A stretch of DNA of 64,000 nt from Patescibacteria group bacterium (GTDB lineage: Bacteria; Patescibacteriota; Minisyncoccia; Phycocordibacterales; UBA9973): assembly GCA_038063535.1 (NCBI GenBank), contig JBBTUV010000003.1:83179-147178 (forward strand), given 5' to 3'. A program made the position numbers and the translations under genes. Shown in pieces: positions 3,964 to 55,225 of the stretch (positions within the stretch are counted from its first letter, which is position 1; every line of letters begins with the position of its first letter). The notes under the pieces were generated by a model. That model made no database searches, was not told the origin of the DNA, and saw only the letters and a program-made list of their open reading frames with translations.

Positions 3964-6900
3964 GCAAGTACAAAAAAATTTTGGTTCTAGGCTCTGGCGC
4001 GCTCAAGATCGGAGAAGCCGGCGAGTTCGATTACTCGGGGAGCCAGTGCGTGAAGGCACTTAGAGAAGAAGGAATAAAAGTTGTGCTCGTAAATCCGAAC
4101 ATCGCCACTTACCAGACCTCAAAAGGCCTTGCGGATGAAGTTTACTTCTTGCCGGTGAGTTATTATTTTGTCAAAAGAGTCATTATAAAAGAACGACCGG
4201 ATGCCATCATGCTCTCCTTCGGCGGGCAGACGGCGCTCAACTGCGGGCTTGAGCTCGAGGAGCGCGGGATTTTGAAAAAATACAGTGTCGAGGTTCTAGG
4301 CTCACCGACTTCCGCTATTCGCTTGACCGAGGACCGCGAACTTTTCGCAAGGCACCTAAAAAAGATCGGTCTTCCTATTCCACCCTCCGGTTCTGCGACG
4401 ACATATCACCGAGCAAAAAAAGTAGCAAAGAAAATCGGCTACCCTCTCATGATTAGGGCGGCATATGCCTTGGGGGGACAGAAGTCAGGCGTCGCCGAGA
4501 ACGATGCGGAATTCAAAGAGATAGTCGCGGGGGCCCTCGCTATCTCGCCGCAAATCCTCATCGAGAAATATCTTCACCACTATAAAGAAGTCGAGTACGA
4601 AGTGGTGCGGGACAGGTTCGGCAATATTGTCACCGTCTGCAATATGGAAAATCTCGATCCGCTCGGGATCCACACCGGCGACTCGATCGTGATCGCTCCT
4701 TCTCAGACGCTCACCAACCGCGAATATCACGGCCTGCGCGAAGCCAGCCGAAAAATTGTCGAGAGTTTGGGCATTGTGGGGGAATGTAATGTGCAGTATG
4801 CACTCAACCCGCGCCCAAAGAAGGATGAGCTCGAATATTACGTCATTGAGGTAAACGCTCGGCTCTCGCGCTCCTCGGCGCTCGCCTCGAAGGCGACCGG
4901 TTATCCGCTCGCTTACGTTGCCGCCAAGCTTGCTCTCGGAAAAAGCATGCTTGAAGTAAAAAATAAGATCACTGAAGTCACCCAAAGCTTTTTCGAACCG
5001 GCGCTCGACTATGTCACGGTCAAAATACCGCGCTGGGATCTTGAGAAATTCAGGGGGGCAGAAGAGAAGATAGGAAGCGCGATGAAATCAGTGGGGGAAG
5101 TGATGGCAATCGGTAGAACTTTCGAAGAAGCGCTTGAAAAGGCGGTCCGCATGCAAGGCGGGCAAGGTGAGAGTGTCACCTCAAATGGTTTTAAGGATAG
5201 AGGAGAAATAAAAAAATTCCTGTCCTTCCCGAGTCCGAAGAGAATCTTTGCTGTTGCCGCGAGCCTGGCGGCAGGCGAGAAAATAGAAAAAATTTACAAA
5301 ATGACAGGGATCGATCCGTGGTTTCTCTATCGAATAAAAAATATTGTTGATCTCGAGAGGAGATTTAGGAAAAACCGGAAGCTAGAAAAAGAGGCAATGC
5401 TTGAATTAAAACAAAACGGCTTTTCGGACAAAAAGATAGGAAAAATCATCGGCACTACGGAATTCAAAATTCGCGCCCTTCGCAAAAAGCTCGGCGTTCT
5501 CCCGTCAGTCTTCGCCATTGATACGCTTGCCGGCGAAGTGCCCGCGAAGACGAACTATCTTTATCTCACATACAACGGCGCTCACTCGGACGTTGCCCCG
5601 CTTGGCAAGGATGCGATACTCGTCCTCGGGAGCGGCCCTTATCATATCGGCTCTTCGGTTGAGTTCGACTGGTCGGCGGTGAACGCCGCCCTCGCGCTCA
5701 AACGCCACGGCAAGCGCTCGGTCGTCATTAACTGCAATCCCGAGACTGTCTCGACCGATTACGACATGTCCGACAGGCTATATTTCGAGAATCTTTCCTT
5801 CGAGACGGTGTCCGATATTATGGAGTTCGAGCGAGGCGGAGGCGTCATTATTTCGGTCGGCGGCCAGCGGCCGAATAATCTTGCGAAAAAGCTCGATCGC
5901 GAAGGATTCAATATTCTTGGAACGCGCGCTTCCGACATCGATCGTGCGGAGGACCGTAATCTCTTCTCGGCGCTTTTGGATAAACTTCAGATTGACCAGC
6001 CGAAGTGGAGAAGTTTTACTCATATGAAAGACGCGTTAAAATTTTCCATTGAAGTCGGTTTCCCGGTACTTGTGCGGCCGTCTTATGTTCTCTCCGGCGC
6101 CGCCATGAGCGTCTGCTATAACCGGCGGGAACTAGAGGAATTTGTGAGCAAAGCGGCAGTACTTTCTCCGGAATACCCGGTGACTATCTCCAAATATATC
6201 GAAAACGCCAAGGAGCTTGAATTTGACGCGGTCGCCGAAGAGGGCGAACTGATAATTTATGGAATCTCCGAACACGTAGAGAATGCCGGGGTCCACTCGG
6301 GAGATGCAACGATAGTTTTTCCGACTCAAAGAGTTTACGCTTCGACCGAGCGGCAGCTTCGCGAAATCGCAAAGTTAATTTCCAAAGAGTTAAACATTAC
6401 CGGCCCCTTCAATATACAATTTTTAGTCAAAGACAACCGGCCGTATGTGATCGAAGTGAACCTCCGGGCGAGCCGCACCTTCCCGCTCCTCTCCAAGGCT
6501 ATGGATGCTAATTTCCCGAGCATAGCGGTGGATGCGTTCTTTGGACGCGCGGAACGGAAGAAATACAAACTTCCGAGCTCGGTCGTTGTGAAGTCCCCGC
6601 AGTTTTCGTTCTCCAGGCTTTTGGGCGCCGACCCGGTGCTTCGCGTTGAGATGGCCTCGACCGGCGAAGTGGCGGCTTTTGGGCACGATTACGATGAGGC
6701 GCTCTTGAAGGCGGTGCTTTCTTCCAACAGATTTTACTTCAACAACAAATCGGTTCTGCTCTCGCTCGGCGGTACGGTCAATAAGGCAAAGTTTCTCGAA
6801 GCGGCGAAAATTCTCCGCTCACTCGGTTACAAGATCTTCGCGACTGACACAACAGCAAAATACTTGGATGAGCAGGGTATACAATGCAAAATGGTCCGGA

Positions 6901-34688: not shown

Positions 34689-35061
34689 GGGGATGCAAGG
34701 CATAGACAGAGGGCCGGCTACCTAGATGCATGTCGAGACGGCGGAGCTCGTAAAACACGCCAAAATGTTAATTGCAAAATTGACTTCAAAGCAATCGCCT
34801 TACTTCGGTAATGCGTTTGCTCCGGTTTTCGCGTAAGCCAAGACCGGTGTTCTCTCCATAGACTTCCGATATATGGAAAGGGCATAAAATTATCGGGATA
34901 GTTCCTGCGAGCGTTTCGGCGCTGGAGCAAAACTAAGAAACTCGGTCGGGAAATATTTGGCGCGTTTAAGAATTTTCCGGTCTAAAACAAAAAAGCGCGC
35001 TACACATGTAGACTTTTAGTCAGCAGCTTTCTGCACGGGGGCTCGATTCCCCCCATCTCCA
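34689..35061 (+). ncRNA. ssrA: tmRNA (SsrA)
   Basis: 5' GGGGAUG pairs with 3' CAUCUCC-A to form a tRNA-Ala-like acceptor stem with a G3:U wobble. T-arm GGGGGCUCGAUUCCCCC. Candidate tag ORF ends ...GNAFAPVFA-TAA at ~34834-34836. Lies directly downstream of smpB. Confidence 0.8.
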
Positions 35062-35092
35062 CAAAACGGATTTATTATGATAACCTTAAGCG

Positions 35093-37046: not shown

Positions 37047-37120
37047 CCGCCCTTAGCTCAGCTGGTTAGAGCACAGAGCTTATACCTCTGGGGTCCTTGG
37101 TTCGAGTCCAAGAGGGCGGA
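37047..37120 (+). tRNA. tRNA-Ile with anticodon UAU (TAT)
   Basis: Cloverleaf: acceptor CCGCCCT/AGGGCGG. D-arm GCTC...GAGC. Anticodon stem CAGAG/CTCTG with loop CTTATAC (U33, anticodon TAT, A37). T-arm CTTGG-TTCGAGT-CCAAG. Discriminator A. No encoded CCA. Confidence 0.85.
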
Positions 37121-38043: not shown

Positions 38044-38076
38044 TATAATGGTTGCATAGTTTCGAAACCTTGCAAC
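38044..38076 (+). promoter_or_regulatory. TATAAT -10 box followed by a 26-bp quasi-palindrome GTTGCA-TAG-TTTCGAAA-CCT-TGCAAC (operator-like) immediately upstream of the B12-module first gene. A 7-bp palindrome CATGAGG...CCTCATG lies at about -35.
   Basis: Seen directly. Arms GTTGCA/TGCAAC and the central TTTCGAAA are self-complementary. Confidence 0.35.
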
Positions 38077-38078
38077 TT

Positions 38079-38618
38079 ATGGATGTTTATAAAAAAAACT
38101 GGCTAAAGTTTGTTCTCGCAATAATTGCCTGCTTTCTGATTAGAATTATACCATTTCGTCCACCGAATGTGGAACCGATTCTTGCAACCCAGATGCCTTT
38201 TAGTAAGGTCTACGGAGCTTACGTGGGCTTTATATTTGCATTTTTGAGTATTATCTTGTTCGATCTGGCGACCAGCACCTTTGGAGTATGGAGTTTCCTT
38301 ACTTCGACCACCTATGGAGTTCTGGGAATCGCTGGAGCCTACTATCTTAGGAACCGTAAAGCTAACTCTTGGAATTTTGCCAAGTTTGCAATAGTCGGGA
38401 CGCTTTTCTTCGATGCCGTAACCGGCCTCTCTATCGGGCCCCTCTTTTTTAGTCAGCCCTTCTCCGAAGCATTTTTCGGGCAGATCCCGTTCACTCTTTG
38501 GCACCTCCTCGGCAACGTTTCCTTCGCGCTTGTTCTCTCACCAGCCATCTATCGCTATGTAGTTGAGAATAAAAAATTAGAGATATATGCCAAAAGCGAA
38601 AAAATATTTACAACTTAA
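38079..38618 (+). CDS. Multi-pass membrane protein resembling ECF-transporter S components (candidate cobalamin S-component, CbrT/BtuM-like)
   Basis: ~180 aa with 5-6 TM helices typical of S components. First gene of an apparent operon with nrdJ and cobO. Substrate assignment is by context only. Confidence 0.35.
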   Translation: MDVYKKNWLKFVLAIIACFLIRIIPFRPPNVEPILATQMPFSKVYGAYVGFIFAFLSIILFDLATSTFGVWSFLTSTTYGVLGIAGAYYLRNRKANSWNFAKFAIVGTLFFDAVTGLSIGPLFFSQPFSEAFFGQIPFTLWHLLGNVSFALVLSPAIYRYVVENKKLEIYAKSEKIFTT

Positions 38619-40860
38619 AAAAATTCAGAAACGCGACGGCATGATCGTGCCTTTTGACGAGCGCAGGATCGAGCGTGCGGTTTTCCGCGCGATGAACGCC
38701 GCTGGAGAGGGAGGGGAAAAAGAAGCAGAAGCGGCGATGTATAAGGTTTTAGACGCCCTGCTTGTTCTTAAAGAAGAGGAAAAAAATAAGAACTTTATTC
38801 CTTCGGTTGAAAAGATCCAAGATGTGGTGGAGAACGAGTTGATTGCTGCCAATTTTATTCAAACCGCGAAGGCCTACATTTTATATCGCAAGGAGCGCTC
38901 AATCGTGAGGCAGAAAGTCGGTTTTGTCCCGGAGAAAGTGAAAGAGTTGGTGGCTCTAAGCAGAAAATATTTCCGCAACCCTCTGGCAGAGTTTGTTTAC
39001 TATCGCACTTATTCGCGCTGGATTCCGGACGAGGGCCGGCGAGAGACCTGGATCGAGACCGTGAGTCGCTATATGGATTTTATGCGGGAGAGTTTAAACT
39101 CGAAGCTAACTGAGGCGGAATATGGGGAAATCCGGGAGGCGATTTTAAACCAGGAAACGATGCCTTCGATGCGACTCCTCCAATTTGCCGGCCGGGCCGC
39201 TCGTCGGACCAATGTTTGCGCCTATAATTGTTCCTTTATCGCGCCGCGCACTTTTCAGGATTTTGCCGAGATCATGTATATCTCCATGTGTGGCACTGGA
39301 GTTGGTTGGTCGGTGGAAAGTGAAAATATCCAGTCGTTGCCACAGATAAAAAAACAAACTGGCAAAGTTTTGCCCCCCTATATCATCCCAGACAGCAAAG
39401 AAGGCTGGGCGGACGCTTTCGCCTTCGGACTTAAGACCTGGTTTTCCGGAAGTGACGTTACCTTCGACTATTCGCTCATCCGCCCGGCTGGCTCGATTTT
39501 AAAGACGATGGGCGGAAAAAGTTCCGGACCGGAACCGCTCCGGGCGCTGCTTGAATTTTCCCGGGAGCGAATTTTGCGGAGGCAGGGCCGCCGCTTGTCC
39601 AATTTGGATGCGCATGACATCATCTGTAAAATCGGAGAGTGCGTGGTCGCGGGCGGCGTAAGGAGGAGCGCGATGATCTCGCTCTCCGATCTTGATGATG
39701 AAGCAATTCGCGATTCGAAAAAAGGACAATTCTACACAACCGAAGCGCAAAGAATGCTCGCCAATAACTCCGCGGTTTATTCCTCAAAGCCAACCGCCGC
39801 CGAATTCTTGGACGAGTGGGTCGCGCTGGCAAAGTCCGGGTCCGGCGAGAGAGGAATTTTTAATCGCGGTAATCTCTCGAAAACTCTTCCTCCGAGACGT
39901 CTCGCGCAGTGGAAAGACGGGAAATATCCGAGCTGGGGGACCAACCCCTGCGGGGAAATCGTGCTGCAATCGAAGCAATTCTGTAACTTGAGCGAAATTA
40001 TTGCCCGCTCGAATGACACTGAAGAAACCTTGATAAAAAAAATAAGAATCGCCACGATTTTGGGAACTTACCAGGCAACCCTCACCTACTTCCCGTATCT
40101 ATCAGCAGAGTGGAAGAAAAACTGCGAAAAGGAACGTTTACTCGGTGTTTCAATAACCGGCCAATGGGACTCCAAAGCGGTCCGGCATCCGAAAACTCTC
40201 CTGCGTCTACGACAAGTCGCTATTGAAACCAATAAAAAATACGCTAAACGCTTTGGTATTAGTCCGTCCACTTGCATCACTTGCGTGAAGCCTTCTGGAA
40301 ACCTTTCACAGACGGTCAATTCCTCCTCCGGCATGCATCCGCGGCACTCAGAGTATTATATTCGCCGTGTTCGGATTTCGACGACTGATGCTTTGTTTAA
40401 GATGCTTAAAGACCAAGGGGTGCCGTATTTTCCCGAGGTTGGCCAGACCAAAGAAGAAGCGACAACATATGTGTTGGAGTTTCCGGTGAAATCTCCCGAA
40501 GGCGCGATTTTCCGCGACGACTTGACCGCACTAGAGCAGCTTGAACACTGGAAGATCGTGAAAGAAAATTACACAGAGCATAACCCTTCGGTTACGATCT
40601 CGGTCGGTGAGGATGAATGGTTGGCAGTTGGCAACTGGGTTTACGAAAATTGGGACATCGTCGGAGGACTTTCCTTTCTTCCTCGCGAGAACCACGTTTA
40701 TCAGCTCGCTCCTTACGAAGCGATATCAAAGGAGAAGTACGAGGAGATGCTCTCCCATGTAAAAGACCTCGATTTTTCCAAGATCGTGACCTACGAGAAG
40801 GTCGACGAGACGGAAGTAAAAAAAGAATTAGCCTGCGTGGCGGGGGTTTGCGAAGTTTAA
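38587..40860 (+). CDS. nrdJ: Adenosylcobalamin-dependent ribonucleotide reductase, class II, with N-terminal ATP-cone
   Basis: ATP-cone (KIQKRDGMIVPFDERRIERAV). 757-aa RNR ten-stranded barrel region. C-terminal Cys pair (...ELACVAGVCEV). Adjacent cob(I)alamin adenosyltransferase. Confidence 0.75.
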   Translation: MPKAKKYLQLKKIQKRDGMIVPFDERRIERAVFRAMNAAGEGGEKEAEAAMYKVLDALLVLKEEEKNKNFIPSVEKIQDVVENELIAANFIQTAKAYILYRKERSIVRQKVGFVPEKVKELVALSRKYFRNPLAEFVYYRTYSRWIPDEGRRETWIETVSRYMDFMRESLNSKLTEAEYGEIREAILNQETMPSMRLLQFAGRAARRTNVCAYNCSFIAPRTFQDFAEIMYISMCGTGVGWSVESENIQSLPQIKKQTGKVLPPYIIPDSKEGWADAFAFGLKTWFSGSDVTFDYSLIRPAGSILKTMGGKSSGPEPLRALLEFSRERILRRQGRRLSNLDAHDIICKIGECVVAGGVRRSAMISLSDLDDEAIRDSKKGQFYTTEAQRMLANNSAVYSSKPTAAEFLDEWVALAKSGSGERGIFNRGNLSKTLPPRRLAQWKDGKYPSWGTNPCGEIVLQSKQFCNLSEIIARSNDTEETLIKKIRIATILGTYQATLTYFPYLSAEWKKNCEKERLLGVSITGQWDSKAVRHPKTLLRLRQVAIETNKKYAKRFGISPSTCITCVKPSGNLSQTVNSSSGMHPRHSEYYIRRVRISTTDALFKMLKDQGVPYFPEVGQTKEEATTYVLEFPVKSPEGAIFRDDLTALEQLEHWKIVKENYTEHNPSVTISVGEDEWLAVGNWVYENWDIVGGLSFLPRENHVYQLAPYEAISKEKYEEMLSHVKDLDFSKIVTYEKVDETEVKKELACVAGVCEV

Positions 40861-40866
40861 ATTACC

Positions 40867-41391
40867 ATGATGCTGCTTGCTTTTACAGGGAATGGCAAAG
40901 GGAAAACCACGGCGGCGCTCGGGAACGCTCTGCGGCTCCTCGGGGCGGGCAAGCGCGCTCTGATGGTGCAGTTTATCAAAGGGCCGTGGGAATCAGGCGA
41001 GCATAAATCAAGCGCCCGCCTTGAACCGGATCTCAAGATCATAAAAACCGGCAAGGGCTTTGTGGGGATTCTCGGGGACAATTTGCCGATCGAAGAGCAC
41101 CGAGAAGCTGCCGAGGAAGGATTTAAGGTAGCGCGTAAGGAAATTGCCGGGGGCAAATACCATCTCCTTATCTTAGATGAAGTCCATAACGCGATCCGGC
41201 TCGGACTCGTGCCCATTTCTTTTGTGCTCGCATTTCTCGACTATGCCCGCGACAAAGTGGAATATGTTATCACGACCGGCCGAGACGCAGCCAAAGAAAT
41301 TATTGACCGAGCCGATCTGGTGACAGAGATGCGCGACGTGAAACACCCGTTTAAAAAGGGCGTCAAAGCAAAGGTCGGAGTAGATTATTAG
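40867..41391 (+). CDS. cobO: Cob(I)yrinic acid a,c-diamide / cob(I)alamin adenosyltransferase (CobO/CobA/BtuR family)
   Basis: P-loop TGNGKGKTTAALG and QFIKG...LDE motifs characteristic of CobA/BtuR. 174 aa. Confidence 0.85.
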   Translation: MMLLAFTGNGKGKTTAALGNALRLLGAGKRALMVQFIKGPWESGEHKSSARLEPDLKIIKTGKGFVGILGDNLPIEEHREAAEEGFKVARKEIAGGKYHLLILDEVHNAIRLGLVPISFVLAFLDYARDKVEYVITTGRDAAKEIIDRADLVTEMRDVKHPFKKGVKAKVGVDY

Positions 41392-41404
41392 ATTATTAGG
41401 TTTT

Positions 41405-41558
41405 TAACAACTGAAGACGTCTTGCGTTTGGAAGTGAGGTTTAATTCCTCCACTGTGCCGCAACGGTAATCTGCAAAAGCAGTAGTCCGGTCGTTACGTA
41501 AGATGTATCCCGAGCAGGATGTTCGTTCATGAGTCGCCTGCTCTTAGCAGGTTTTTTT
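41405..41558 (+). promoter_or_regulatory. Candidate cobalamin riboswitch with intrinsic terminator expression platform (terminator GCCTGCT-CTT-AGCAGGC + T7 at ~41536-41558)
   Basis: GAGGTTTAATTCCTCCACTGTGCCGCAACGGTAA resembles the conserved cobalamin-aptamer core (GGUGAAAAUCC...CCCGCCACUGU, recalled from memory). The downstream AGCAGGATG...CCTGC is B12-box-like. An alternative anti-terminator pairing GAGCAGG/CCTGCTC is possible. Located between cobO and the DUF4430 gene. Confidence 0.55.
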
Positions 41559-41566
41559 ATTAAAAT

Positions 41567-42454
41567 ATGAAAAAAATAATTTTTGCTTCCATTATCCTTC
41601 TAACTTTTGGCCGGATTGCTTGGGCAGAAGAGGAAATATTGCCTCCTCCACCGGAGGAAGCCGTGGTTGAAGAAGCTCTGCCAGAACCAATTCCCGAACC
41701 GGAAGTAGTCCCCGAAGTCGAGTTTAGTATTCAAGATGGAGATTTTGCTCTCGAGAAAAGTCTCCACCTTCCGGAAGAGGGCAATGTCTCAATAGAGGGG
41801 CATGATGTGGATGCGCGCAGCGTTTTAGCGGTTCTTTATGCTTGGGACGAGGAGAGTAGTGACTTCGAAATTTCCGAGCTCATTTACTACCCATCATTCT
41901 CCGCTTTCTACGTGAAATGCATAACGCTTGAAGAAGAGAAATGCGACTATTGGATGTACAAGGTAAATAGTGAAGCGCCCTCGGTCGGGATGGATAGTTT
42001 CATTCTCGAAGCGGGCGATCAGGTGGAAATTTATTTTGACGACTCCTTCTTCGGTGAGCCGGAGGAAGATCCTCCGCCGGAAGTTGTGGAAGGTCCTCCC
42101 GAGGAAGAAGAAGGACCGCGAATAACGAGTTCAGGAAGCAGAGGGAAGTCGAGGGAGCCCGAAGAACCCAAGGAAGTGCCAACTGAAGAAGTTATCGTGG
42201 CCGCCCCTGCGGCGCCGCCGGTAGTTCCGGCAATTGTGCCTCCGCCGGTTGTATCCAAAGTTGCAAAAGCCGAGCCGGTCCAAGAGACACAGGAGCAAAT
42301 AGCTACAATCCCAGTATTAGAACCTCCGCCGATCGGACTTTCCGCCGCGCCCATCGAGAGTGGAAATTCTCCAAAAGCTCCGATTGTACTCGGCGGGATT
42401 GCCGCACTTCTGGTTTTGATTTTTCTGGGCAAGAGATTTCTAATGAAAAATTAG
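41567..42454 (+). CDS. Secreted/membrane-anchored DUF4430-like protein (putative surface cobalamin-binding protein) with Pro/Glu-rich low-complexity linker
   Basis: Signal peptide MKKIIFASIILLTFGRIAWA. Motif DYWMYKVNSEAPSVGMDSFILEAGDQVEIYF matches the DUF4430 hallmark (WMY.VNG...L..GD.I.W.Y). C-terminal TM anchor. Sits directly downstream of the riboswitch-like leader. Confidence 0.6.
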   Translation: MKKIIFASIILLTFGRIAWAEEEILPPPPEEAVVEEALPEPIPEPEVVPEVEFSIQDGDFALEKSLHLPEEGNVSIEGHDVDARSVLAVLYAWDEESSDFEISELIYYPSFSAFYVKCITLEEEKCDYWMYKVNSEAPSVGMDSFILEAGDQVEIYFDDSFFGEPEEDPPPEVVEGPPEEEEGPRITSSGSRGKSREPEEPKEVPTEEVIVAAPAAPPVVPAIVPPPVVSKVAKAEPVQETQEQIATIPVLEPPPIGLSAAPIESGNSPKAPIVLGGIAALLVLIFLGKRFLMKN

Positions 42455-42488
42455 TTGCAATTTTTTGAAACCAGTTTAAAATTAAAAC

Positions 42489-42797
42489 ATGAACGGACTC
42501 AAAATCAAAAGACCTCTTCCCAGAACCGCTTACGAGCGAAACGCGGTGACCTATAAAATTTTGGCGAACCCGAAGCGATTGGAAATTTTAAATCTCCTGT
42601 GCGAGCAGGAGATGCCGGTGGAATCCCTGGTCAAGGAGCTCGGCATTACCAAGGCGAACGTTTCCCAGCACCTCGCGCTCCTCCGCCACGCCGATCTCGT
42701 GACCGTGCGCCGAAACGGCCTAAACGCTTACTACAACATTATAGATCCGCGCATCGTCGAACCCTGCCGAATCCTGCACAAACTTCACTCGAAGTGA
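42489..42797 (+). CDS. ArsR/SmtB-family transcriptional regulator
   Basis: Winged HTH: LANPKRLEILNLL...ESLVKELGITKANVSQHLALLRHADLV. Confidence 0.85.
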   Translation: MNGLKIKRPLPRTAYERNAVTYKILANPKRLEILNLLCEQEMPVESLVKELGITKANVSQHLALLRHADLVTVRRNGLNAYYNIIDPRIVEPCRILHKLHSK

Positions 42798-42818: not shown

Positions 42819-43058
42819 ATGTTGACCGATTTCATACAAAAAAGGCTAAAAAGCGCTAAATATAAAATCTTGAAAGACAGAAGTTATTTCGGGGAAATTA
42901 CTGGGATGAGAGGGGTTTGGGCTAACGCAAGAACTCTCGAGGCATGCAGGAAAGAGCTTCAAGAAGTGCTTGAAGATTGGCTGGTTCTATCTATCAAGCG
43001 CGATAAGAATATTCCCGGCTTCAATTTCCCGAGTGCTCGAATTTTGAGAGATGCCTAG
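42819..43058 (+). CDS. hicB: HicB-like antitoxin (UPF0150 family)
   Basis: YFGEITGMRGVWANARTLEACRKELQEVLEDWL matches the HicB N-domain pattern (GE.P.L.GC.A.G.T.EEA....EA...W). Confidence 0.65.
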   Translation: MLTDFIQKRLKSAKYKILKDRSYFGEITGMRGVWANARTLEACRKELQEVLEDWLVLSIKRDKNIPGFNFPSARILRDA

Positions 43059-43263
43059 GGCAGTCTCAGCCAGGAAGCTTATCGAAAACCTCCGACTCTT
43101 TGGTTTTACCGGCCCGTATTCGGGAGGCAGGCACATGTTCATGATCAAAGGAAATTTGAAACTGCGAATCCCTAATCCCCACCACGGCGATATTTCTAAG
43201 AGCTTGCTTTCCGAGATCCTTCGTCAGGCCGGAATTTCCGCAAGCGAGTGGAATAAGTTATAA
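43051..43263 (+). CDS. hicA: HicA-like mRNA interferase toxin (YcfA family)
   Basis: KLIENLRLFGFTGPYSGGRHMFM...IPNPHHGDISKSLLSEILRQAGIS matches HicA (K.L...GW...R..GSH....HP......V.P.H.....GT...I.KQAG). Gene order is antitoxin-first. Confidence 0.65.
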   Translation: MPRAVSARKLIENLRLFGFTGPYSGGRHMFMIKGNLKLRIPNPHHGDISKSLLSEILRQAGISASEWNKL

Positions 43264-43305: not shown

Positions 43306-43455
43306 TGAAAGGTAAATAAGTTCTTTCAAGCTACTTGTTTACCTGCCTCTGGTGGGCAAAAAGTCGCCCTAGCTTTGAGCGCATAATTTTTTGTGCTTTC
43401 GGAGCTATGGCGACACCTCGGTCGCCTAGCGGACTCATATTTAAGGAGAACGGCA

Positions 43456-44097
43456 ATGTCTACCCAGAACATGCCGGAAGACGAAGTCGAACTTGCGACC
43501 GATGAACAACTCGGTCATATCCTCGACATGTGGCGCCGCCGGCTGAGGGGCCGCAAGCTCACCAACCCCGAGGCGCAGGCCATCATCACCAACGGCGGGT
43601 TCTATCTGCCGGTGATGGACGAGGCCGCTGATGTGCTCGTGGACCGCGTTCGTTCGGAAATCTCGAACACGATCGTTGTTTATCTGAACAACATCAAGCG
43701 CGGACAGACTGTTGAGCAGCTTCTCGATGCGACGGGGCGCAGGCAGTACACGGAGAAGTCTTCCGTCGCCACCATGCCACTCGTCGGCAACGGCGGCCCA
43801 CTCTCGGGTGAGTTCGTCTGGTTCAAGTCAGACGGTGGATTGTCTGACGCCGGAGTGGAGGAGGAGCGTGTCAGGCGCGGTCTCGTCCGCGATCTAGAGA
43901 TGCAGCTCCAGTACAACGCGGAGCACCCGGAGTTCGCCGATACGCACCCAAACGGCGATAGTTGGCCCGCAGACGACAAGGGCAACTACAATTTCGTCGG
44001 CCTCGGCCGGTGGGGCGGCGGGCGTGGGGTCGTTGTGGGCCGCGGCGGCGGCGGCGGGTGGGGTGCTGGCGACTGGTTCGGGGGCCGCCGCAAGTAG
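43456..44097 (+). CDS. DGR target (variable) protein, 213 aa, Gly-rich C-terminal variable region. ATG with AAGGAGA SD; ORF-track GTG at 43393 is probably an extension.
   Basis: The C-terminal 107 nt (VR) are a near-copy of the downstream TR, differing only at TR adenines. GC-rich relative to neighbours. No signal peptide. Confidence 0.85.
   Translation: MSTQNMPEDEVELATDEQLGHILDMWRRRLRGRKLTNPEAQAIITNGGFYLPVMDEAADVLVDRVRSEISNTIVVYLNNIKRGQTVEQLLDATGRRQYTEKSSVATMPLVGNGGPLSGEFVWFKSDGGLSDAGVEEERVRRGLVRDLEMQLQYNAEHPEFADTHPNGDSWPADDKGNYNFVGLGRWGGGRGVVVGRGGGGGWGAGDWFGGRRK
43987..44093 (+). repeat. DGR variable repeat (VR)
   Basis: 107 bp aligned to TR 44436-44542 without gaps. 25 mismatches, all at TR adenines (24 read G in VR, 1 reads T). 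The 3' 21 nt CTGGTTCGGGGGCCGCCGCAA are identical (IMH-like). Confidence 0.9.
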
Positions 44098-44164
44098 TAC
44101 TTAGGACTTAGTCACTGTGGTCTTTTTGACACTTTGACTTTTGTCCTGCATTGGATTTACCTAG

Positions 44165-44205
44165 GGCTCCGCCGTATACCACGTGCGGAGCCGCTTGTTT
44201 TTATA
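44165..44205 (+). terminator. Hairpin GGCTCCGC-(12 nt)-GCGGAGCC + TTGTTTTT downstream of the target gene (terminator; could double as a DGR homing-enhancing hairpin)
   Basis: Perfect 8-bp inverted repeat followed by a T-rich run, seen directly. Confidence 0.5.
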
Positions 44206-44435
44206 TATAATCAAATTGGTAGTAGGTGAATACGCGGGCGATCACGGTTTCCCGCTACCGAACCCAGTACCCATACATCGAGAGTGCTTGTGACCACGTG
44301 TTTCGGGCAGAGTGATGTATGCAGACACTTCAACAAAAAAAGAAGTTACTTGGTATGAAATGCTAGGGCATTGCGATGCCGAATACGATACAACCTCGAG
44401 AGTATTCGAAGGGTGGTGGCACAGAAGGCATTTCA

Positions 44436-44542
44436 TACAATTTCGTCAACCTCAACCAGTGGAACGACGAGCGTAAGGTCAATGTGAACCGCAGCAACGG
44501 CAACAGGTGGAATGCTAGCAACTGGTTCGGGGGCCGCCGCAA
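44436..44542 (+). repeat. DGR template repeat (TR), rich in AAC/AAT codons
   Basis: Invariant copy of the VR with A at every variable position. Its conceptual translation (ORF 44376-44564) is Asn-rich, as is typical of TRs. Confidence 0.9.
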
Positions 44543-44560
44543 CCCACTTCTTTCTCTCCT

Positions 44561-44962
44561 TTAACCGGGAGAGTTTTGTTTTGCAAGCTGTGCAGTTAGT
44601 TGTCCTTGCCATCCTCCGAGCATTTTGCCAACTTCTTCAATTTTCTCTGACAAAACAATATATTTTTTGTTGTCGAATGATTTAGTTTCCCACAATACCA
44701 TCAAAAGTATTTTTATCGTGTCAACTTTCCTCCTGGCCAAGCGAACCCAAGGCAGCTTCTCTTCTTTTGATAAAAAAGTGGCAATCGAAATTGCCTCAAT
44801 TATTTCTACAAACAAGCAATCAATTCTTTCCCCGAGCGAATATCGATGGATTTTTGCTAAAATGTTATGATAGCTATGCCAGAGAATATAGACACTTTTC
44901 AACTTGCCAAGAACCGGCAAAATCGAAGCGGGGGGGGGCTTTGTAGTCATAAATTTCATCAT
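44561..44962 (-). CDS. avd: Avd-like accessory variability determinant (four-helix-bundle / 23S rRNA IVS protein family), encoded on the strand opposite to TR and RT
   Basis: C-terminal ...LSEKIEEVGKMLGGWQGQL resembles Bordetella phage Avd ...IAEVGRILGSWIARV and TIGR02436-type four-helix-bundle proteins. Its reverse-strand coding was verified by hand translation. Confidence 0.65.
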   Translation of the reverse strand: MMKFMTTKPPPASILPVLGKLKSVYILWHSYHNILAKIHRYSLGERIDCLFVEIIEAISIATFLSKEEKLPWVRLARRKVDTIKILLMVLWETKSFDNKKYIVLSEKIEEVGKMLGGWQGQLTAQLAKQNSPG

Positions 44963-45934
44963 ATCATTTCTCTCGAAAACTTGCTGTTAGCGTGGCAAGA
45001 ATTTCTAGTCGGCAAAAAATCCCGGAAAGACGTGCAGGAATTCGAGAGGAATCTGATGGAGAACATAATTTCTTTACATCAAGATCTCGCCAACAAAACA
45101 TACAGGCATGGAAGTTATCACGCCTTCAACATCTCCGATCCCAAGCCCAGAAACATCCACAAAGCAAACGTTCGAGACAGATTGCTCCATCATGCCATCT
45201 ATCGAGTGCTGTACCCATATTTCGACCCAAAATTCATTACCGATTCATATTCTTGCAGGTTGAATAAAGGCACGCATAGGGCCATGAACAGATTCAGGGA
45301 ATTCGCATATAAAGTTTCGAAGAACAACATGCGAACCTGCTGGATTCTCAAATGCGACATCACGAAATTCTTCGCAAGCATCGATCATGATATGTTGAAG
45401 AAGATTTTAGCAAAACATATCGAGGACAGAGATATTCTTCGATTTTTAGGAGGGGTGATAGATAGTTTTCACACTCCCCAAGGTGTTTCCTTGGGGAAGG
45501 GGTTGCCACTTGGGAATTTAACTTCCCAACTCCTAGTGAATGTGTATATGAACGAGTTTGATCAATTTATGAAGCATAGGCTCAAGGTTAAATATTACGT
45601 CCGCTACGCAGACGACTTTGTGATATTAAGTGAAGGCAGAAACCAACTTATTACATTAAGGCGATATATCGCCATTTTCCTGAAAGAAGAATTGAAACTG
45701 GAACTGCCCCCTAACAAGATTTTTGTCAAAACATCAGCTTCCGGGATAGATTTCTTGGGCTGGGTGCATTTCCCGGAGCATAGAGTGCTGAGAACTACAA
45801 CAAAAAGGAGAATGCTAAAAAATTTAAAAGCAAATTATGAGAACGAAACCCTGCAATCTTATCTGGGGATGCTCTCGCACGGGAATACTCAACTTACTCA
45901 AAATGAAATTCGCCAGCTCGCTCACGCACTCTAG
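44867..45934 (+). CDS. DGR reverse transcriptase
   Basis: RT motifs: DPKPRNIHKA...DRLLHHAIYRVL (domains 1-2), LPLGNLTSQLL (DGR-specific [I/L]GxxxSQ), YVRYADDFVIL (YxDD box). 355 aa. Its 5' ~95 nt overlap avd antisense. Confidence 0.9.
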   Translation: MIAMPENIDTFQLAKNRQNRSGGGLCSHKFHHIISLENLLLAWQEFLVGKKSRKDVQEFERNLMENIISLHQDLANKTYRHGSYHAFNISDPKPRNIHKANVRDRLLHHAIYRVLYPYFDPKFITDSYSCRLNKGTHRAMNRFREFAYKVSKNNMRTCWILKCDITKFFASIDHDMLKKILAKHIEDRDILRFLGGVIDSFHTPQGVSLGKGLPLGNLTSQLLVNVYMNEFDQFMKHRLKVKYYVRYADDFVILSEGRNQLITLRRYIAIFLKEELKLELPPNKIFVKTSASGIDFLGWVHFPEHRVLRTTTKRRMLKNLKANYENETLQSYLGMLSHGNTQLTQNEIRQLAHAL

Positions 45935-55135: not shown

Positions 55136-55225
55136 TGGCGGAGACGGTGAGATTCGAACTCACGAGGCCCTTACGAACCTAACACCTTAGCACGGTGCCG
55201 CTTTAGACCACTCAGCCACGTCTCC
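55136..55225 (-). tRNA. tRNA-Ser (anticodon GCU), type II with long variable arm, CCA encoded
   Basis: Reverse complement GGAGACG...GCACC-GTGCTAA-GGTGT...GTGAG-TTCGAAT-CTCAC-CGTCTCC-G-CCA. Anticodon loop has GCT at 34-36. Confidence 0.88.

Follow-up and report, generated by a model that had tools for sequence, protein, structure and literature searches.

An intercistronic cobalamin riboswitch ahead of a DUF4430 gene in a Patescibacteria genome, a probable B12-dependent transcription-termination OFF switch of compact class-II type

Cobalamin riboswitches of class Cbl-II are defined by the absence of the P2 loop-stem-loop between P1 and P3 and by only a short P6 extension, and those of the Cbl-IIb type are reported to be selective for adenosylcobalamin (AdoCbl) (PMC7367189). 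The three-part logic of a repressing corrinoid riboswitch was demonstrated by compensatory mutagenesis for metE of Priestia megaterium (Kennedy et al. 2023, PMC10327014). There, a kissing loop between L5 and L13 stabilizes a weak P13 and the terminator forms; in the ligand-free RNA an antiterminator arises instead, between bases of P13 and the terminator 5' arm (PMC10327014). Here we describe a comparable arrangement in a 64,000-nucleotide stretch of contig JBBTUV010000003.1 from a Patescibacteria group bacterium (assembly GCA_038063535.1), referred to below as the window. On its forward strand a riboswitch and terminator (41403–41558) lie in the 175-nt spacer between the stop codon of the adenosyltransferase gene cobO (41389–41391) and the ATG (41567) of a gene encoding a DUF4430 protein. 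A first-pass annotation of the window had proposed a cobalamin aptamer with competing antiterminator and terminator at this place, in a spacer of this length and with the terminator ending 8 nt before the ATG. That picture is upheld by an Rfam match above threshold, by helices that covary and by an independent terminator scan. We consider it highly probable that the element is a compact class-II riboswitch that turns the DUF4430 gene off by B12-dependent transcription termination, and the arsR gene behind it is possibly also repressed.

The covariance-model search suggested in the first-pass annotation gave a clear result. The AdoCbl model RF01482 matches window positions 41403–41546 (+). In a search of the whole 64-kb window against the 4227 families of Rfam 15 at curated thresholds, it scores 55.7 bits, above its gathering score of 50, with E 1.7e-7. 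The match covers the full model, positions 1–149 of 149, and the resemblance is far above chance. RF01482 and its clan, CL00101, are further characterized by a four-way junction of P3–P6 with conserved loops and covariation and by control of a B12-related gene; the junction, loops and covariation are all found here, and the DUF4430 gene lies downstream. Rfam returned four matches in the 64-kb window: a transfer-messenger RNA (tmRNA), two tRNAs and RF01482. R1, a model that we built from the riboswitch subfamily described below, scored 109 bits at 41414–41524, its sole match. By both models the window thus contains one cobalamin element only, which bears out the earlier statement that the riboswitch sits after cobO and not before the operon. 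The stretch GAGGTTTAATTCCTCCACTGTGCCGCAACGGTAA of its core is located at 41436–41469. Judged from its sequence, the spacer element is a genuine cobalamin riboswitch, a divergent but ordinary member of a well-known RNA class.

The aptamer is enclosed by an outer helix, P1/P3 (41417–41427 with 41496–41506, +), which is seen both in the Rfam alignment and in the minimum-energy fold as 11 unbroken base pairs, continuous and without a P2 module. Within it follow the J3/4 junction TTGGAA (41428–41433), which carries the conserved GGAA and aligns to the consensus UGGAAG, and the P4 hairpin (41434–41451), whose loop L4, TTTAATT, is aligned by Rfam as the counterpart of canonical GGUGAAAAUCC. P5 with its loop L5 (41454–41462) contains TGCCG (41456–41460), the counterpart of the consensus UCCCG (Rfam model positions 54–58; consensus in PMC10327014). 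P6 (41464–41489) pairs CGG 41464–41466 with CCG 41487–41489 and, in the Rfam alignment, carries a hairpin extension of 4 bp (41471–41482; CTGC 41471–41474 with GCAG 41479–41482). The segment equivalent to the B12 box, AGTCCGGTC (41484–41492), forms the 3' side of P6 and J6/3 and is aligned by Rfam with the consensus AAGUCAGGUC. The first-pass annotation had seen a B12-box-like sequence in AGCAGGATG...CCTGC, which is in fact the L13/P13 3' side together with the antiterminator partner. Of the core motifs that it compared, GGTTTAATTCC does correspond to GGUGAAAAUCC of P4/L4, but CCACTGT is out of register: Rfam aligns it to GCaCGGu at the end of P4 and start of P5, not to canonical GCCACUGU, whose counterpart is GCAACGGTAA. 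The features that would mark Cbl-I, a P2 module and a large P7–P11 extension of P6 folding back on the core, are both absent. The 11-bp outer helix and the 4-bp P6 hairpin agree with the definition of Cbl-II, and on secondary structure alone the element would be placed in that class, with Cbl-IIb as its closest match.

Metagenomes scanned for the invariant core CCACTGNGCCGCNACGGTAA gave at least 120 stretches. Of the 131 pattern matches listed, 126 have CGAGCA behind them, and these collapse to at least about 108 distinct sequences from groundwater and candidate phyla radiation (CPR) metagenomes that share a common layout: GGAAG-(P4/L4)-CCACTGTGCCGCAACGGTAA, a variable P6 extension, AGTCCG(G/A)TC, the 3' strand of the outer helix, and YCC-CGAGCA-GGR. 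Covariation was assessed in a structure-blind MAFFT alignment of 51 relatives, onto which the structure of the window element was projected. The projected structure pairs 88% of alignment cells, a value that falls to 37–55% when the 3' partners are slid by 1–3 columns. Changes on both sides were found in 18 pairs, and none of 500 shuffles attained the observed values. The outer helix shows such two-sided changes in all nine counted pairs, and the P6 extension, which varies in length and is missing from some relatives, has compensatory changes in four of four. Pairing in P4 stands at 99.6%, with compensatory changes at two of its pairs, and in P13 three pairs vary with a few compensatory cases. 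Among the unpaired segments, AGTCCG of the B12-box equivalent is invariant, as are G17 and A19 of J3/4, with G18 and A20 nearly so (≥90%; alignment A3).

The loop of P4 is itself a site of variation. The window element and L082 have no insertion in L4, many subfamily members carry one, and a hairpin insertion of 22 or 32 nt separates otherwise near-identical contigs (L081:3375–3591 and L083:3261–3467 vs L082:3294–3478). A tertiary contact between L4 (TTTAATT) and ATTAAA (41559–41564) was considered and dropped, because near-identical relatives hold large L4 insertions.

Directly behind the aptamer lies a hairpin that we assign as P13 (41507–41520, +) from its conservation and its complementarity to L5. 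It has the stem ATCC/GGAT and the loop L13 CGAGCA (41511–41516). With L5 UGCCG (41456–41460), L13 can form five pairs round one bulged A (G60–C11, C59–G12, A13 bulged, C58–G14, G57–C15 and U56–A16). From this complementarity and the published model (PMC10327014) we infer that an L5–L13 kissing loop forms. CGAGCA occurs within 260 nt behind the aptamer in 126 of the 131 pattern matches listed, and the inner three stem pairs of P13 are 94–99% paired, with the compensatory variants TCT..AGA, GTTC..GAAC, AATC..GATT and CCC..GGG. The canonical riboswitches L078 and L070, found in the same search, both read UCCCG in L5, and GGGA, able to pair with UCCC, stands in the platform of L070; the UGCCG/CGaGCA combination of the subfamily differs from this UCCCG/GGGA by one flipped pair. 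Extra copies with a different L5 were not found among the related loci searched. The first-pass annotation included neither the P13 hairpin nor the kissing loop, which would provide the link from ligand binding to the terminator.

Downstream, the terminator scan identified an intrinsic terminator at 41536–41558 (+), GCCTGCT-CTT-AGCAGGT followed by seven T (41552–41558). It comprises seven pairs, four of them G-C and the closing one G-U, around a 3-nt loop; its T-run ends 8 nt before the ATG, and its form is retained in relatives. The hairpin and the run of seven T described in the earlier annotation are therefore real, but the 3' arm reads AGCAGGT and not AGCAGGC. The alternative pairing reported there also stands: GAGCAGG (41512–41518) is the exact complement of CCTGCTC (41537–41543), and this antiterminator (41512–41543, +) has a calculated energy of −11.0 kcal/mol, or −14.7 with extra pairs, compared with −1.9 to −2.6 for P13 alone, −9.7 for the terminator and −12.3 for P13 and terminator together. 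Rfam draws the same pairing as "P13". Because it is the minimum-energy fold (−14.7 kcal/mol) of 41507–41545, a stage at which the terminator's 3' arm has yet to be transcribed, Rfam's "P13" hairpin is better read as the antiterminator. P13 (41507–41520) and the terminator hairpin (41536–41552) do not overlap, and GAGCAGG:CCTGCTC overlaps both, as a repressing design implies. The duplex between the L13/P13 segment and the terminator 5' arm has a z-score of −2.5 in the window and of −2.4 to −4.0 in the nearest relatives. At L116 the P13, antiterminator and terminator change together, with GAGCAGAA facing TTCTGCTC and CAGAAAT in the 3' arm.

We hypothesize the following mechanism. With a corrinoid bound, L5 would kiss L13, with one A bulged, and the kissing loop on the weak P13 would hold GAGCAGG in place. 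CCUGCU(C) would then be free to pair with the downstream AGCAGG, the terminator (41536–41552 plus the U-run) would form, and RNA polymerase would halt 8 nt short of the ATG. In the ligand-free state P13 alone (about −2 kcal/mol) would be too weak, and GAGCAGG would pair with CCUGCUC once that segment is transcribed. The resulting antiterminator, at −11 to −15 kcal/mol, would block the terminator and the DUF4430 gene would be expressed. B12 most likely turns transcription off, because the layout matches the published repressing design of P13, antiterminator and terminator.

The fate of the region behind L13 was followed through the subfamily, in the 103 members with a downstream open reading frame (ORF) among the matches listed. 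A hairpin with a U-run stands between L13 and the ATG in 74 of them, and in 39 of those 74 CTGC, the complement of GCAG in L13/P13, lies in or at the 5' arm. The ATG is at most 14 nt from L13 in 18 members, where P13 would supply the ribosome-binding site through its GGA; sequestration in P13 could only repress. The remaining 11 have neither a terminator nor a close ATG.

Several observations weigh against a transcriptional OFF switch of this kind. The P13 stem is only 3–4 bp long, and the kissing loop has no covariation within the subfamily, as L5 was fixed by the metagenome search pattern and L13 is invariant. Complementarity between L13/P13 and the terminator arm is enriched across the subfamily and not universal (mean z −0.74, 23% below −1.64), so that other members must rely on different antiterminators. 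A sigma-70 promoter scan of the + strand from 40650 to 42455 found none ahead of the riboswitch, and no Shine–Dalgarno sequence is visible at 41553–41566, before the ATG. The RF01482 alignment, moreover, places its 3' hairpin on GAGCAG (41512–41517) with CTGCTC (41538–41543); taken literally, such a P13 could not coexist with the terminator, as in an ON switch. An activating riboswitch of exactly such logic has been described for A. halodurans cobT (PMC10327014), and here GAGCAG...CUGCUC would be the true P13, stabilized by the ligand, so that the terminator is blocked and the DUF4430 gene is on. We regard this as very unlikely. The 18-nt loop of the hairpin, ATGTTCGTTCATGAGTCG, has no complement to L5 (neither GGCA nor CGGC), and its sequence and length are not kept among the closest relatives; CGAGCA, which is complementary to L5, is invariant in the roughly 108 sequences among the matches listed, and the hairpin that bears this conserved complement does not touch the terminator. 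The 18 members with an ATG directly after L13 fit only repression, and a B12 scavenger induced by plentiful B12 would be of little use to the cell. Rfam's 3' hairpin was accordingly rejected as P13, its loop being neither conserved nor complementary to L5, and it fits the published antiterminator.

The missing Shine–Dalgarno sequence also speaks for a mainly translational or dual-level switch, in which the hairpin 41536–41552 and the AU-rich leader gate ribosome access and the U-run is an inefficient terminator in this organism. The hairpin is indeed short (7 bp including a G-U, −9.7 kcal/mol) and in the nearest relatives weaker still, at about −5 kcal/mol, and part of the subfamily is clearly translational. 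We nevertheless find such a switch improbable at this locus, since the hairpin ends 15 nt upstream of the ATG and leaves it uncovered, the seven U directly behind the stem are the standard form of an intrinsic terminator, and that form recurs in the 74 of 103 listed members noted above. Least probable of all, and in our estimation hardly tenable, is that the aptamer has decayed or become blind to ligand and the region serves as a constitutive terminator of the nrdJ–cobO operon, with the DUF4430 gene transcribed separately. An Rfam score just 5.7 bits over threshold and an L4 (TTTAATT) that departs from canonical GUGAAAAUC could be taken as signs of decay, but core positions that are all invariant over about 100 relatives while the helices covary are the mark of purifying selection acting on RNA structure. 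Beside a constitutive terminator a conserved antiterminator would serve no purpose, and the strict association with genes for B12-binding domains (89 of the 103 listed members) also argues against decay.

If repression by termination is correct, the position of the element between cistrons is readily understood. The products of the upstream nrdJ and cobO use B12 or activate it, and B12 ought not to repress them, which would account for a riboswitch placed after cobO: both genes would escape control, and the extracellular B12-capture protein alone would be shut down at B12 sufficiency. The claim in the first-pass annotation that only the surface binding protein is repressed is thus reasonable, though slightly too strong, as arsR begins 35 nt downstream of the DUF4430 stop codon and may be co-repressed. 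The gap between the cobO stop and P1 is only about 17–25 nt, and transcripts of the riboswitch may arise by readthrough from cobO or from a start within its 3' end. The end of cobO itself (41381–41399) carries an 8-nt tandem duplication, TAGATTAT TAGATTAT TAG, in which the second TAG (41389–41391) is the stop codon; this duplication is absent in relatives.

The cluster, all on the + strand, begins with a gene for a small membrane protein (38052–38618) that weakly resembles an S-component of energy-coupling factor (ECF) transporters (PF07155, 27.9 bits against a cut-off of 26.7) and does not match DUF6580. It is followed by an nrdJ-type adenosylcobalamin-dependent ribonucleotide reductase (RNR; 38587–40860) with ATP-cone, RNR_Alpha and RNR-II insertion domains (TIGR02505 RTPR, E 5e-89). 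Next comes the cobO/btuR ATP:corrinoid adenosyltransferase (40867–41391; PF02572, E 8e-53; cob(I)yrinic acid a,c-diamide adenosyltransferase in NCBIfam), whose closest relatives are in Sungbacteria and Parcubacteria genome bins. Behind the DUF4430 gene lie the ArsR/SmtB-family regulator (42489–42797; PF01022, NF033788) and, directly after it, a HicB-like (UPF0150) and HicA toxin–antitoxin pair (42819–43263). An arsR gene also follows the DUF4430 gene in L081, L084, L085, L086 and L087, which is every relative reaching that far, and the two may be co-transcribed. In L081, L085 and L087, too, a small gene precedes nrdJ; of their products, that of L085 alone weakly matches an S-component, and that of L081 matches nothing in Pfam. 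The order of ftsH, a tRNA, small membrane genes, the nrdJ cluster and recG is common to the window, L085 and L087.

The DUF4430 homologues P0002–P0005 sit in the same gene order as in the window. The riboswitch occupies the same place in L081–L084 and L087–L089, where its Rfam scores range from 55.0 down to 42.9 bits, some of them below threshold. L085 has the same gene order without a riboswitch (4900–5020), its DUF4430 gene starting 3 nt after the cobO stop codon, which suggests that the riboswitch was gained or lost within an existing operon. From the shared gene order and the abutting cobO and DUF4430 genes of L085, it follows that the DUF4430 gene is normally part of the nrdJ–cobO transcription unit in this lineage, with the riboswitch between cistrons. 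In the relatives with P0004 (L087:5001–6002; also L088 and L089), the public 333-aa gene call begins inside the aptamer. This is an annotation artefact, and the real start is the ATG at L087:5157, behind the terminator. Of 80 cobO loci from species-representative genomes, just two, L015 and L016, show a strong riboswitch match within 5 kb, and neither match lies directly after cobO. To judge from these loci, the cobO-adjacent position is specific to the narrow lineage of the window.

The product of the regulated gene (41567–42454, +) is 295 aa long and has a signal sequence at the N terminus, a linker rich in Pro and Glu and, at the C terminus, a membrane anchor. Its DUF4430 domain (PF14478) is recognized at residues 110–158 with 33.6 bits against a cut-off of 23.8. 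A single-sequence search of PDB sequences with this protein gave no match. A profile of the riboswitch-linked DUF4430 domains, searched against the PDB, retrieved only B12 carriers at the top of the list, always through their C-terminal beta domain, with transcobalamin-1 at E 0.0015 and transcobalamin-2 and intrinsic factor weaker. The first downstream gene has DUF4430 in the same 89 of 103 listed subfamily members. Together with its riboswitch, this sequence evidence supports the DUF4430 protein as a surface B12 binder.

The second operon gene was scanned at 52 loci among the matches listed: 34 encode a squalene-hopene-cyclase/prenyltransferase toroid, 19 DUF4430, 12 PF01122 ("eukaryotic cobalamin-binding protein") and 9 DUF6580, the last being membrane proteins of about 170 aa. 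These second genes (L096–L209) often overlap the small DUF4430 gene by 11–20 nt. By domain content, their products of 500–960 aa that combine the toroid with DUF4430, some with PF01122, are bacterial transcobalamin-like proteins. The riboswitch also precedes genes for proteins of about 565–590, 378–386, 421–457 and 436 aa that have no Pfam match at E ≤ 0.001 (L106:3276–5030, L104:4282–6039, L160:2401–4158, L123:211–1902, L197:493–2214, L204:4895–6625, L182:11048–12181, L200:4182–5339, L187:452–1714, L174:419–1789 and L157:12505–13812). Five such proteins searched against NCBIfam gave no match either. These families appear to be B12-regulated.

The subfamily lies at the edge of what Rfam recognizes. 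Across 18 of its loci (L091–L119), five reach the RF01482 threshold and one that of RF01689, five are below threshold and seven are unreported at E ≤ 0.01; L015 is also missed at the gathering score. L106, a member without the P6 extension, is called RF01689 AdoCbl-II. The members come from groundwater metagenomes and from genome bins of Patescibacteria (CPR). They may constitute a distinct lineage, with L5 UGCCG and L13 CGAGCA, a class-II core and an optional L4 insertion, that defines an undescribed B12-scavenging regulon in bacteria unable to make B12; we judge the case for this proposal to be evenly balanced. If it is true, the regulon spans DUF4430 proteins of a single domain, either secreted or anchored, full transcobalamin-like proteins that join a toroid to DUF4430, DUF6580 membrane proteins and several unmatched families.

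A cobalamin riboswitch before a gene for B12 uptake or binding is textbook, and Rfam detects the window element at its curated threshold. Mildly new are its intercistronic position, the variant L5/L13 pair and a CPR/groundwater subfamily at the margin of Rfam. Our literature search found nothing relevant that links CPR or Patescibacteria with cobalamin and riboswitches, nothing relevant on DUF4430 with B12 or on transcobalamin with a cobalamin riboswitch, and no link of the subfamily to a transcobalamin-like regulon. The locus offers a view of the B12 economy of a small-genome Patescibacteria bacterium that depends on outside B12: RNR and adenosyltransferase would be expressed regardless, and the extracellular capture protein would be throttled by an intercistronic switch. 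The riboswitch is strong guilt-by-association evidence for bacterial DUF4430 proteins as B12 binders, and the subfamily flags several unknown protein families as B12-regulated. Its sequences, at least about 108 of them distinct, could serve to refine the Rfam models.

Elsewhere in the window we noted a complete diversity-generating retroelement (43393–45934). Its target ORF (43393–44097) contains a variable repeat (43987–44093) whose template repeat lies at 44436–44542; every one of the 25 mismatches between the repeats sits at an adenine of the template (24 A to G, 1 A to T). The minus strand carries a bAvd-like gene (44561–44962), and a reverse transcriptase gene (44867–45934) completes the element. 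The tmRNA (131.5 bits) and the two tRNA genes found by Rfam are at 34689–35064, 37047–37120 and 55139–55225.

Set beside the described systems, the window element shares with RF01482 (clan CL00101, which also includes RF00174 and RF01689) a full-model score above the curated threshold, a four-way junction with J3/4 GGAA, P4/L4, P5/L5, P6 and the AGUC(A/C)GG segment, and a leader position directly ahead of a B12-related gene. It differs in L5 (UGCCG vs UCCCG), in L4 (UUUAAUU vs GUGAAAAUC) and in P6 (CGG/CCG vs CUG/CAG), and its subfamily stands at the edge of the Rfam models. With Cbl-II, and especially Cbl-IIb, it has in common a continuous P1–P3, a short P6 hairpin and a candidate L5–L13 kissing-loop partner, and the AdoCbl preference of Cbl-IIb fits the cobO and AdoCbl-dependent RNR context of the window; unlike in Cbl-II, the P6 extension varies in the subfamily and is at times absent. 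The env8 hydroxocobalamin riboswitch (Cbl-IIa; PDB 4FRN, 4FRG) is likewise a compact aptamer with a short P6 extension; its kissing loop has a bulge in L13 (PMC10327014), as the putative one of the window would, and it hides its ribosome-binding site in P13, as translational members of the window's subfamily would. However, env8 acts on translation and selects for small upper ligands, whereas the window element appears to be transcriptional and its P1/P3 is more like that of Cbl-IIb. The P. megaterium metE riboswitch (PMC10327014) provides the parallel for switching, with a kissing loop on a weak P13 and an antiterminator between part of P13 and the terminator 5' arm. In the window the antiterminator would use bases of the L13 loop besides the 3' side of P13, P13 has 4 bp, and the putative kissing loop has a flipped pair and a bulged A. 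The metE element stands at the start of its operon and the window element between cistrons, where its design, read from sequence alone, would apply the same repressing logic to the DUF4430 gene.

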